The notes under the pieces were generated by a model. The model searched no databases. It was given only the letters and a program-made list of their open reading frames with translations, and had not been told where the DNA came from. From Octopus vulgaris (Eukaryota), in contig OX597826.1 of NCBI GenBank assembly GCA_951406725.2, positions 74,152,001 to 74,216,000 on the forward strand: DNA of 64,000 nucleotides, given 5' to 3'. The position numbers were made by a program, and so were the translations under genes. Every line of letters starts with the position of its first letter. The stretch's first letter is position 1. Of this stretch, positions 5,082-10,903 are shown piece after piece.

Positions 5082-5800
5082 TATTTAATGAATTAAGAAA
5101 AGAAGTGGAGAAAAATATTTCTAGTGGCGTCTTTTCGACTGGGAAGAAAATCATCTTTAATTTTCCGATGATGGATTTCTTGAAATTTGATAGAAATTCA
5201 ATCGTTTTCTGAAATTAATTTTAGTAAAATCTTCGTACAATATTATAAAGTGCATAATGCGTATTCTCTGTCTATTCATCATATCAGCACTGTACATTAC
5301 TGAGGACCAAGCCTTTGTGTTATCTGGTCTGAACAGACGCATGCATAGCCGTCCCACAATATTAGTTGGGTTAGGGTTAGGTAAACATAAAATATTTTGC
5401 TTCTTTTTCTTGAGAAATCTGAATATCCATTGCAAATAAGAGATATCAGTCAACTGACTAAAAGAAAGCAGGAAACTCTTATTTGTTTTACCTTTTATAT
5501 AATTTTGTTTTCAAAGCAACTTGCCATATATCTGAAAGTAACGTATAAGAGATTTGGAGTCAGCTGACTTTCGGTGTATAGTGACAGTCGAAAAAAAAAA
5601 AAGAATCCGTCAAAGGTTTCTTTAACGCCAGGTTAAACAACTGAAGATGTACGGAAATAGACTGGACAATGCAATAAAAGCAATGTATCCAAACTACCAC
5701 ACTGCCAGTGGCCCAGCAACAAAATTTGCTAAGGGGGTGCAAACCCAGGTCCTAATTTTTTTAATGAAAAATGTGGATATAATAATAATTTTTATTATTA

Positions 5801-6215
5801 TGAGGATTGGCTGAAATGTTCATAATCTGAGCAAGACACTCTCAATGGAATGTGACCAAATGAAGTTCATTTTCTAACATAGTTCCTCTTACTGTCCACA
5901 CGCTTCCATTAGTAGTTGCAGTGCTTGGGTCGCACTGGTGAAAAAGCTTTTCTGATGATCAAAATGGTCATCAACAGATAAGATGTTCTGGTGCTCAGCT
6001 GAGTGTTTTTCTATGTTGGGAAACAGATGATAACCAGAAGGAACCAAATCACTAACATAGGGAGCATGATCAGCCAGTTCAAAGTCAGTCACATACAGCA
6101 GCCATTGAAACCAAGGACTTGTGTGCTGAAGCATTGTCCTAATGAAACAAGTTTTCATCAGTTTTTCTGGGTGTTTGGTCTTGATAGCCTTTCATAACTG
6201 CCTTAGGAAGTTGGT
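5801..6215 (-). mobile_element. Degenerate mariner 3' fragment nested in the hAT element
   Basis: ORF 5889-6158 contains HAPYVSDLVPSGYHLFPNIEKH, a decayed HPPYSPDLAPSDYHLF motif. TIR-like tgaggattggctgaaatgttcata at the left edge. Confidence 0.75.
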
Positions 6216-6595
6216 ATTGAAATTTTCCATTGATGGTGTGATCATTTTGAAGATAGCCAATAAACACAATATTTTTTGCATTAATGCATAGTATATGCAA
6301 TAATGTGAAGTATATTTTGCATATTAAAATGTTTAATTTTGGAAATGTATCAAGCAAAGCTAAAATAAGCAGTAAAAATACAAATTGCAAGTATTTCAAA
6401 CTGTGGGACACTACATGACAAAAACTAACAAAAAAAAGGAAGAAAATAGTGGTGCTTGTGTTCCAAATGTACAATGAGAAGGCGCAGGAGAATGATAGAG
6501 AGATGGGGTCGAGGAAAGGAAGTTAGAAGGAAAGAAAAGAATGAAAAGTGAAACGATAAATTGAGGATCTGAAATGAGTACTAGGCAGGAAATTG

Positions 6596-6785
6596 GCCCC
6601 TGTGCCGGTGGCACGTAAAAACAGCACCCACTACAATCTCAGAGTGGTTGGCGTTAGGAAGGGCATCCAGCTGTAGAAACACTGCCAGATCAGACTGGAG
6701 CCTGGTGCAGCCTCCTGGCTTCCCAGGACCAAATCGAACCATTCAACCTATTCTAGCATAGAAAATGGACATTAAACGATGATGT
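6596..6785 (+). mobile_element. SINE family B (GGTGGCACGTAAAA..GCACC core, (GAT)n tail)
   Basis: gtggttggcgttaggaagggcatccagctgtagaaac...ggacattaaacgatgatg. Other copies near 21565-21770(-), 22863-22973(+), 25520-25776(+), 31223-31512(-), 34735-34908(+), 46855-47092(-). Confidence 0.85.
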
Positions 6786-7084
6786 CTTACCTATGCACTG
6801 GTCAAGTAGAAAAATGATGAGTGACAAAAAATTAGATTGTCTTTTGTTACCAAAAAAGTGAAGAAAGAGAGTAGAGAAGGTTAGGGAAGAGCAAGTAGGA
6901 AGAAAGAGAGAGTGCGGAGAAATAAGGGAATAAAGATAGACAGTAGGTAGTTGACAGAGATGGACAGAGGAAGAAATGGAAGGCAGTAAAGAGAGAAAAA
7001 CAGCAGATAGGTAGAGAGGTAGATAGAGGGGAGAGGAGAAGGACAGAGAAATAGATAGAAAAGAGACAGTCTTGCACCAAATAT

Positions 7085-10000
7085 TTCTCAGGAAGTTTTC
7101 GACCAAATTTTCCGACAGTCAGAAAATCCTCGGAACTTCCAAGGAGATTTTCGACCTAATTTTCCGGAAATCAGAAAATTCTCGGAACTTCCCAGGAAGT
7201 TTTCGACCAAATTTCCCGGAAATCAGAAAAACCTCGGAGCTTCCAGGGAGGTTTTTGACCAAATTTTCCGGGAGTAAGAAAATCCTCGGAACTTCCCCGG
7301 AAGTTTTCTACCAAATTTCCCGAAAGAGAGAAATCATCGGAACTTCCCAGGTAGCTTTCGACCAAATTCCCGGAAGACAGAAAAGCCTCGGAACTTCCCT
7401 GCTAGTTTTCGACCAAATTCTCCGGATGTAAGAAAATCCTCGGAAGTCTTCGACCAAATTCCCCAGAAGACAGAAAATCCTCGGAACTACCCAGGAAGTT
7501 TTCGACTAAATTTTCCGGAAGTTAGAAAATCATCGGAACTTCCCCGGAAGTCTTCGACAAAATATTCCGAAAGATAGAAAATCCTCGGAACTTCCCAAGA
7601 GGTTATCGAGCAAATTTTTCCTCGGAACTTCCTAGGATGTTTTCGACCAAATGCTCCGGAAGTAAAAAATCCTCGGAACTTCCATGGAAGTTTTCGAACA
7701 AATGTTCCGGAAGCCACAAAATCCTCGGAAATTCCCAGGAAGTTTTCGACCAAATTTCCCAGAAGTCAGAAAATCTTAGGAAATCCCAGGAAATGTTCGA
7801 CCAAATTTTCTGGAAGTTAGAAAATCTTCGGAACTTCCTCGTAAGTTTTCGACCAAATTTTCCGGAAGTCAGAAATTAATCGGAACTTCCCAGGAAGTTT
7901 TCGACCAAATTTCCCGGAAGTCACAAAATCTTCGGAACATCTCAGGAAGTTTCGACCAATTTCCCCGGAAGTTAGAACTTCTCCGGAAGTTTTCGACCAA
8001 ATTTGCCGTAAGATAGAAAATCCTCGGAAATTCACAGGAGGTTTTCGACCAAATTTTCCGAAAGACACAAAATCACCGGAACTTCCCAGGTTTTCGAACA
8101 AATTTTCTGGAAGTCAGAAAATCCTCGGAACTTCCCATGAAGTTTTCGACCAAACTTTCTGGAAGTCAGAAAATCATCGGAACTTCCAAGGAAGTTTTCG
8201 ACCAAGCTTTCTGGAAGTCAGAAAATACTCGGAACTTCCCAGGAAGTTTTCGACCAAATTTTCCGTTCGATAGAAAATCCTAGGAACTTCCCATGAGGTT
8301 TTCGACCAAATTTACCGTAAGATAAAATACTCGAAACACCCCAGGAAGTTTTCGACCAAATTTTCCGTACGATAAAAAAATCCTCGGAACTTCCCATGTA
8401 GTTTTCGACCAAACTTTCTGGAAGCCAGAAATTCCTCGGAACTTCCCATGAAGTTTTCGACCAAACTTTATGGAAGTCAGAAAATACTCGGAAGTTCCCA
8501 TGAAGTTTTCGACCAAATTCTCCGCACGATAGAAAATCGCCGGAAATTTCTAGGAAGTTTTCGACCAAATTTCCCGAAAGGAGGAAATCCCTGGAACTTA
8601 CCAGGAGGTTTTCGACCAATTTTCCCAGAAGGCAGAAAATCCTCGGAACTTCCCACGATTTTCGACCAAACTTTCCGGAAGTCAGAAAATCCTCGGAACT
8701 TCCCCGTCAGTTTTCGACCAAATTTCCCGAAAGGCAGGAAACCCCCGGAACTTCCCAGGTGGTTTTCGACCAAATTTACCAGAAGGCAAATTTACAGAAG
8801 GAATTCCTCGGAACTTCCCACGATTTTCCGACCAAACTTTCCGGAAGTCAGAAAGTCCTCGGAACCTCCCAGGAAGTTTTCGACCAAATTTTCCGTTCGA
8901 TAGAAAATCATCGGAACTTCCCATGAGGTTTTCGACCAAATTTACCTTAAGATAGAAAATCCTCGGAACATCCCAGGAAGTTTTCGACCAAATTTCCCAG
9001 AAGGCAGAAAATCCTCGGAACTTCCCATGAATTTTCGACCAAACTTTCCGGAAGTCAGAAATCCTCGGAACTTCCCAGGAAGTTTTCGACCAAATTTCCG
9101 TACGATAGAAAATCATCGGAACATCCCAGGAAGTTTTCGACCAAATTTTCCGTTCGATAGAAAATCCTAGGAACTTCCCATGAGCTTTTCGACCAAATTT
9201 ACCGTAAGATAGAAAATCCTCGAAACACCCCAGGAAGTTTTCGACCAAATTTTCCGTACGATAAAAAATCCTCGGAACTTCCCATGTAGTTTTCGACCAA
9301 ACTTTCTGGAAGCCAGAAATTCCTCGGAACTTCCCATGAAGTTTTCGACCAAACTTTATGGAAGTCAGAAAATACTCGGAAGTTCCCATGAAGTTTTCGA
9401 CCAAATTCTCCGCACGATAGAAAATCGCCGGAAATTTCTAGGAAGTTTTCGACCAAATTTCCCGAAAGGAGGAAATCCCTGGAACTTACCAGGAGGTTTT
9501 CGACCAATTTTCCCAGAAGGCAGAAAATCCTCGGAACTTCCCACGATTTTCGACCAAACTTTCCGGAAGTCAGAAAATCCTCGGAACTTCCCCGTCAGTT
9601 TTCGACCAAATTTCCCGAAAGGCAGGAAACCCCCGGAACTTCCCAGGTGGTTTTCGACCAAATTTACCAGAAGGCAAATTTACAGAAGGAATTCCTCGGA
9701 ACTTCCCACGATTTTCCGACCAAACTTTCCGGAAGTCAGAAAATCCTCGGAACCTCCCAGGAAGTTTTCGACCAAATTTTCCGTTCGATAGAAAATCATC
9801 GGAACTTCCCATGAGGTTTTCGACCAAATTTACCTTAAGATAGAAAATCCTCGGAACCCCCAGGAAGTTTTCGACCAAATTTCCCAGAAGGCAGAAAATC
9901 CTCGGAACTTTCCATGAATCTTCGACCAAACTTTCCGGAAGTCAGAAATCCTCGGAACTTCCCAGGAAGTTTTCGACCAAATTTCCGTACGATAGAAAAT

Positions 10001-10440
10001 CATCGGAACATCCCAGGAAGTTTTCGACAAAATTTCCCGGAAGGCAGAGAATCCTCGGAACTTCCCATGAATTTTTCGACCAAACTTTCTGGAAGTCAGA
10101 AAATCCTCGCGTCCCAGGAAGTTTTCGACAAAATTTCCCGTGCGATAGAAAAATCCACGGAATTTCCCAGGAAGTTTTCGACGAAATTTCCCGGAAGGCA
10201 GAAAATCCTAAGAACTTCCCAGGAAGATTTCGATCAAATTTCCCTGAAGTCAGAAAAATCTTCGGAACTTCCCAGGAAATTTTCGACCAAATTTTCTGGA
10301 AATCAGAAATTCATCGGAATTTCCCAGGAAGTTTTCGACCAAATTTCCCGGTAGTCAGAAAACTTCGGAACTTTTTCGACTAAATTTCGTGGAAGTTAGA
10401 AAATCTTCGGAACTTCCTAGGAAGTTTTCGACCAAATTTC
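7085..10440. repeat. Tandem satellite, ~52-bp monomer, roughly 64 copies
   Basis: Consensus cccaggaagttttcgaccaaattttccggaagtcagaaaatcctcggaactt repeated head to tail. Copy number estimated from length/52. Contains an 888-bp higher-order duplication. Confidence 0.97.
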
Positions 10441-10903
10441 GTGAGGTGGTTTTTGCACGTTTTATAGCAATATAATTGGAATACTATTTGGTACAGATGC
10501 TACTTTGCTTCAGAAGTTGGTTTGTCATAAATTCCCTTGGGAATTTTAAGCCCAGCTTCATCACTTTTATTTATTTATTTTTGTTCTTTGTTTTTGCTTT
10601 GAAACGAAATCTAGCTTCAAGCATCTTATACGGATAATTTTTTAGACACTATTTTCTGAAACTGGTAAGATTATGTAGGGGGTGCAAATTTTGATCTTGC
10701 ACCACCTGAAAATTCCAAGAGGTGCAGGTGCACCCGCTGCACCCCCTGTTCCGGGCCCTTGCACACTGCGTCCCATGTAATTCACCAGTGCCACGTCGGA
10801 GTGCACAGTATGGTCCTCAGTTTGGCAGAGATACTGCGGATCGTGCCTAATCGTGCCATAAGACTGTCTCACCAGAGTTGACCAGAAACTGCATAACAAC
10901 AAT

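Follow-up and report, generated by a model that had tools for sequence, protein, structure and literature searches.

In a window of 64,000 nucleotides from Octopus vulgaris (contig OX597826.1, positions 74,152,001 to 74,216,000; coordinates below count from the first letter of the window), positions 5706-10761 form an element of about 5 kb that lies between two 8-base duplicates and encloses a tandem array of a 52-bp monomer. We interpret the element as a DNA transposon that has no transposase of its own and probably belongs to the hAT superfamily, and the array as likely held by a small sub-lineage of a larger transposon family. We put the probability of this reading at about 0.6. A hAT transposon with a satellite array as its cargo had been proposed from the letters of the window alone (the original prediction).

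The right end is dispersed and has a sharp boundary

Part of the region 5400-11100 is contained in 20 of the 24 public runs listed, under four organism labels. We compared positions 10284-10915, which take in three monomers, the right arm and a flank of 150 bases, with the raw run X21 and with the contig sets X1 (organism A), X4 (organism B) and X19 (organism D); runs with small shares of the region, such as those of organism C, do not count as evidence here. Contigs that left the window behind 10752 numbered 14 of 873 in X1, 21 of 877 in X4 and 15 of 515 in X19. The loose ends all shared the next ten letters (the end found in the window plus one extra C) up to the equivalent of 10761. Beyond these letters they disagreed: agreement over 30 letters was 0.55-0.59, which is near random for the last 20 letters if the first ten agree. 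Because a common end is followed by unrelated flanks, the element stops at 10761 and occupies many different places. The right end exists in multiple copies with unrelated flanks, and its sharp boundary, defined by the loose ends of contigs, is independent of the pattern used in the original prediction.

Further, four X4 contigs had a different interior before 10499, and three pieces among the matches listed (two from X4, one from X19) started at 10499. One right end thus serves at least two interiors. The interior named by the X4 loose ends before 10499 was not detected in the window with two motifs at up to two mismatches.

An 8-bp target-site duplication and imperfect inverted repeats delimit the element

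The arms and the flanking target-site duplications (TSDs) are as follows; terminal inverted repeats are abbreviated TIRs.

5698..5705, plus strand: left TSD CACACTGC, identical to 10762-10769
5706..5798, plus strand: left arm, with an imperfect TIR (5706-5720) and one GGGGGTGCA at 5733, from motif and end comparison
10441..10761, plus strand: right arm, with an array-adjacent segment (10441-10498), a part from 10499 shared with the second interior, six GGTGCA/TGCACC and a TIR reaching 10761, from contigs and motif counts
10762..10769, plus strand: right TSD CACACTGC, its boundary backed by the loose ends of contigs

With the right end fixed by the contigs, we scanned the 10,441 upstream bases for positions that start with CA and match at least 8 of 11 letters. 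Two of the 10,441 positions passed; of these, 5706 directly follows an exact copy of the 8-mer (expected 1.7e-5). A duplication in front of a matching left end is far beyond chance, at about 2e-5 given the right end. This conditional test was used instead of a window-wide list of 8-mer pairs with CA ends, which held 172 pairs, nearly all in microsatellites.

The exact 8-bp TSD of the original prediction was confirmed, as 5698-5705 is identical to 10762-10769 and CACACTGC has no other plus-strand copy in the window. The short imperfect TIRs also held: both ends of the element start with CA, and the left end shared 8 of 11 and 9 of 15 letters with the reverse-complemented right end, or 11 of 15 once the extra C seen in other copies is included. 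The repeated subterminal motifs held for the right end (six core motifs) but not for the left (one). The GGTGCA/TGCACC core occurs six times in the final 100 bases of the element and once in the opening 100; every other 100-base window has at most one, and four were reached in none of 10,000 shuffles. Given this count of six against one, subterminal repeats are essentially a right-end feature. Exact copies of GGGGGTGCA are found once at the left end (5733), twice at the right end (10678 on the plus strand, 10738 on the minus strand) and a fourth time at 47098.

The array is probably present in a minority of copies

The array and its largest internal duplication are located as follows.

7068..10440, plus strand: tandem array of about 65 monomers of 52 bp with internal palindromes, not CpG-depleted, from Tandem Repeats Finder (TRF), monomer cutting and composition
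8251..10024, plus strand: 17-monomer tandem duplication of 887 bp (8251-9137 and 9138-10024), from self-alignment

We express sequencing depth in units obtained by dividing the summed depth by the median for the eight contigs listed in each run; these units give an order of magnitude and no copy number. The terminus of the element reached 508, 435 and 395 units in X1, X4 and X19, respectively, and positions 10636-10657 reached 54, 203 and 75. The arm next to the array (10460-10481) had 1, 29 and 44 units, and the first base past the array (10441) had 1, 11 and 10. These values suggest about 400-500 right ends, only about 10-40 of which have the array-adjacent segment. Because so few right ends have this segment, and because a second interior exists, the array can at most be the cargo of a sub-lineage. 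The depth of the monomer peaked at 250-750 units, which exceeds the 65 monomers of this locus and fits some tens of arrays, not a megabase satellite.

The most serious competing explanation is an ordinary non-autonomous transposon in which the array entered or grew in this copy after insertion, with the depth at the junction contributed by alleles, orthologues, local duplicates or array-free arms. The single depth of X1 at 10441-10481, an interior that resembles ordinary genomic debris (a mariner relic and a repeat resembling a short interspersed nuclear element, SINE) and the majority of right ends without the array-adjacent segment are in its favor. However, three X4 contigs at 10441 had a total depth of 540, compared with about 47 for single contigs, and all three read A where the window reads G. 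Further, the monomer depth indicates that other arrays exist. We regard an array confined to this copy as unlikely.

Several observations nevertheless weigh against movement of the array together with the ends, beginning with the coarse scale of the depth unit. Contigs bridging 10441 with at least 31 letters on both sides numbered two among the matches listed (24 of 2,497 pieces). One of them, X1 record 3, is the window's own sequence. The other, X4 record 17, spans 10284-10553 at single depth with 11 substitutions and 13 gap letters; because of these differences it is not this allele, and it may be a paralogue or the orthologous locus. X1, the best holder of the locus, had single depth and one contig on the array-adjacent arm, a value that is not decisive in that 80% of the run was covered and a filter drops records. 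On their shorter side, the X19 contigs at 10441 continue for only 6 letters beyond that position, which also suits an array confined to this copy. Within the right flank (10768-10915), the three contig sets had depth only at 10790-10833, and they showed no empty site. Finally, the raw run X21 matched only the AT-rich patch 10557-10602, a spurious match, and yielded no monomer or end reads, so that it gives no copy number.

Thus, the claim that the array is traveling cargo has support only for a minority of copies, from one independent bridging contig and from multiple depth in two of the three contig sets, and not for the majority of right ends. Note that X21 and X1 share a species label, yet reads of a repeat abundant in X1 are missing from X21; a label difference or a library effect is possible.

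The array probably changed its length recently

TRF called the array at 7085-10439, and the claim that it lies wholly inside the ends was borne out. Monomer cutting gave 65 monomers from 7100 to 10428, which were on average 87% identical to the consensus and 79% identical pairwise; 35 are 52 bases long, 14 are 51 and the others 37-61. The two 887-bp duplicates share 879 identities with 6 mismatches and 4 gap letters, and nearest-neighbor monomers stand 17 monomers apart. Because these 17-monomer duplicates are near-identical, the length of the array changed recently within this copy, unless the duplication is an assembly error. The classical picture of a satellite, with very long, abundant and homogenized arrays, does not apply to monomers that are 79% alike pairwise and have a depth of some hundreds of units per position, the latter being a rough measure.

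The original prediction had also pointed to CTTGCACCA, just before the array and again near the right end. It is present at 7071 and 10696, but it also occurs at 19771, outside the element. Positions 7068-7085 agree with the monomer consensus at 14 of 18 positions, a score reached by 1 of 5,000 shuffles, and the copy at 7071 is thus part of a worn monomer. Given this origin and the third copy at 19771, CTTGCACCA is no link between the array and the right end.

An origin of the monomer from the transposon ends was ruled out: a monomer profile found nothing in the arms, and local alignments of the monomer with the arms were not significant (p 0.08-0.73). The repeat itself gives rise to the long frames within the array, and an Rfam match to tsr1 was noise (20.7 bits against a cut-off of 235). 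A 30-base monomer pattern was not found in viral and metagenome contigs.

The monomer is partly self-complementary, and every monomer has palindromes of the TTCC...GGAA type. We take these to resemble STAT and ETS sites, a likeness from which we draw no function. The array retains its CpGs (190 observed, 150 expected), with CpG transitions at 5.9% compared with 7.4% at other C/G sites. In an X1 contig that joins 10439 to 10284, the letters between the monomer matches are nearly those of the short variant monomer 8046-8094, in another neighborhood, which hints at variant monomers shared between arrays or alleles.

The interior carries foreign repeats and no detected hAT transposase

About 1.3 kb separates the left end from the array. 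The contents of this interval, overlooked in the original prediction, are a mariner piece, a SINE-like repeat and two purine-rich spacers.

about 5799..6260, minus strand: decayed 3' piece of a mariner-type transposase, frameshifted across three frames, with approximate bounds, from a Mos1 match and three-frame translation
6261..6593, no strand: AT- and purine-rich interior, from composition, with no Pfam family at E < 0.02 in 35 interior frames
6594..6784, plus strand: SINE-like dispersed repeat with 10 further matches in the window
6785..7067, no strand: purine-rich spacer, 76% A+G, from composition

Residues 13-66 of the stop-free frame 5892-6191 matched the Mos1 transposase (E 0.004), and the motifs spread across three frames of 5800-6260 are, we presume, mariner-like. 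The mariner piece had no Pfam match, its last frame had no PDB match, and no longer relatives of the mariner frame scored among 41 candidates. CpG is depleted in this piece (2 observed, 18 expected). For 6594-6784, the name SINE-like is our assumption; its four longest matches in the window are 76-83% identical across 182-192 bases, and no TSD longer than 6 bases was found around it. We infer that both the mariner piece and the SINE-like repeat came in as passengers, by nesting or by capture.

None of the 35 stop-free interior frames matched a hAT transposase family; Pfam matches of interior frames to LRR_TTSS and DAP10 were below the cut-off. Since there is no hAT transposase in these frames and foreign repeats lie inside, the element is non-autonomous and composite.

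A composite structure could also arise by capture, in which the ends of two related but different family members moved, on a single occasion, host DNA that already contained the array along with the mariner relic and the SINE-like repeat. Even when the family form of the right end is used, 4 of 15 positions differ between the ends; the left arm gives way to unrelated repeats after only about 90 bases; and a gapped alignment of the two arms scored 30, within the range of shuffles (95th percentile 31). However, it is normal for the two ends of a hAT element to be unlike each other (PMC10368747), and two contig sets show several copies of the array-adjacent arm, so that a single capture would need later amplification. 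Such a capture is the least probable of the explanations considered here.

Superfamily assignment

P elements have CA...TG ends and TSDs of 7-8 bp. The element here has such ends too, which counts against a firm hAT assignment; this pattern is common to hAT elements and is thus not deciding. A P-type or another DDE transposase that leaves 8-bp duplications might therefore read the ends. In line with this, no transposase was linked to the ends, and scans with right-end patterns found no matches in viral, metagenome and prokaryote contigs. On the other hand, short imperfect TIRs and GC-rich asymmetric subterminal motifs fit hAT (PMC10368747), and the start of the element resembles the TIR of Tip100 (PMC12511174). 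We consider another superfamily improbable.

This copy has an 8-bp TSD, short imperfect TIRs and asymmetric subterminal repeats, and dispersed copies with a precise end and different flanks were found for the right end. Imperfect short TIRs, asymmetric subterminal repeats and an 8-bp TSD are features of hAT elements (PMC10368747; PMC12511174). The sequence thus supports a non-autonomous cut-and-paste element with hAT-like ends, and this part of the proposed hAT vehicle held; membership of the hAT superfamily itself is likely yet unproven.

Two other assignments were rejected. Merlin was ruled out because its termini start with 5'-GG (PMC8101967), and both ends here start with CA. The Helentron or HINE type of carrier does not agree with an 8-bp TSD and TIRs, and no microsatellite lies beside the array.

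Proposed history of the element

A transposase encoded elsewhere, probably of the hAT type, would have bound the ends by their terminal repeats and subterminal motifs, and insertion with an 8-base stagger would have followed. The mobile unit may have been the whole 5 kb or a shorter forerunner. One ancestral copy, in a family of some hundreds, would have gained the repeat beside the right arm, and this founder may have given some tens of daughter copies. Unequal exchange or slippage among the palindrome-rich monomers would then have altered the length of each array at its own site, with the 17-monomer duplication as perhaps the latest step. No host function of the element is implied.

We offer a narrower version more tentatively, as possible but somewhat doubtful: the 52-bp repeat would be confined to one hAT-type sub-lineage, gained once and spread by cut-and-paste transposition to some tens of loci across at least three related taxa, where it would still be growing by multi-monomer duplication to arrays of several kb.

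Comparison with known systems

Xenopus laevis 1723 is a multi-kb hAT-like element with an 8-bp TSD and internal repeats of variable number, built on a different monomer; our literature search retrieved no description of it. For the family described here, no description was found in the open full-text literature, supplements, Repbase and Dfam aside, which does not establish its absence from print.

Non-autonomous DNA transposons that bear arrays are already well described, so the principle is established and the element is a further example. Carriers of tandem arrays include miDNA4 and Xstir of Xenopus, DINE and Tetris of Drosophila and pearl-type elements of bivalves (PMC9659126; PMC12628747), as well as Cg_HINE (PMC7492417; PMC8268682; PMC11136912), DTC84 (PMC3879986), FEDoR (PMC12054243) and Merlin families (PMC8101967). 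In PMC9659126, the word hAT is found in two references only, and its table of carriers accordingly lists no hAT carrier. PMC6947457 and PMC5753468 contained nothing on hAT carriers or end rules.

FEDoR of Rana temporaria is likewise a non-autonomous DNA element with internal tandem arrays, inverted repeats and differing TSDs (PMC12054243). It is about 3.5 kb long, has no open reading frame and 43 copies, and shows short hAT-like and mariner-like patches in its flanks (PMC12054243). By description, FEDoR has four short arrays and paired 91/49-bp inverted repeats, whereas the element here has one array of 3.35 kb and short imperfect TIRs. The miDNA4 element of Xenopus tropicalis is also a non-autonomous TIR element, whose internal repeat ranges from one monomer up to an array and has been proposed as a route to free satellites (PMC12628747; PMC9659126; PMC12054243). 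However, miDNA4 is a Tc1/mariner miniature inverted-repeat transposable element of 300-600 bp with the motif in most copies, whereas most right ends here seem to be without the array-adjacent segment.

Among mollusks, the non-autonomous elements Cg_HINE of Crassostrea gigas and DTC84 of Donax trunculus likewise disperse short satellite-like arrays; the element-bound arrays of this set have up to 89 monomers, and the DTC84 monomers are palindromic (PMC7492417; PMC3879986; PMC8268682). Unlike the element here, Cg_HINE is of the Helentron type and DTC84 has an AA target duplication; both are without an 8-bp TSD and have a far higher genome share. Merlin families likewise move by cut-and-paste, leave 8-bp TSDs and have TIRs that are at times very imperfect; their internal tandem repeats have been proposed as proto-satellites (PMC8101967). 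They differ from the element here in their GG termini, arrays of few units and the presence of a transposase (PMC8101967).

The gain is a tidy further example, a new one of a known route by which repeats scatter through animal genomes, and a better repeat annotation; no new mechanism is involved. Should the array be carried by a sub-lineage of some tens of copies, the TSD, array length and monomer order could be mapped onto a tree of the arms. Such a mapping would test growth of arrays after insertion and the halt of long arrays, as proposed for miDNA4 and oyster Helitrons. If the repeat is confined to one sub-lineage, it would be a small, countable and datable system for the handover from transposon to satellite, in a superfamily that is missing from the table of such cases in a recent review (PMC9659126).

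Surroundings in the window

The window is animal-like non-coding DNA rich in microsatellites and dispersed repeats, which seem to resemble those of octopuses, with CpG observed/expected of 0.83-0.99 across 1-20000 and 0.27-0.49 beyond. Another decayed mariner lies on the plus strand at 4072-4910, with inverted ends and a Mos1-type helix-turn-helix match (Pfam HTH_48, E 5.6e-6), and its DNA does not match the mariner piece within the element. Just to the right of the element, 10923-11233 is a second dispersed repeat, 91% identical to 42638-42950. By eye, 36234-36920 resembles a piece of Penelope-type reverse transcriptase and 41905-42333 the C-terminus of a Tc1-type transposase. Short tandem arrays of 66-67 bp (30598-30814, 32801-33104 and 35570-36132) lie in or beside copies of the SINE-like repeat 6594-6784, which appears to be a second repeat family in the window that spawns tandem units.

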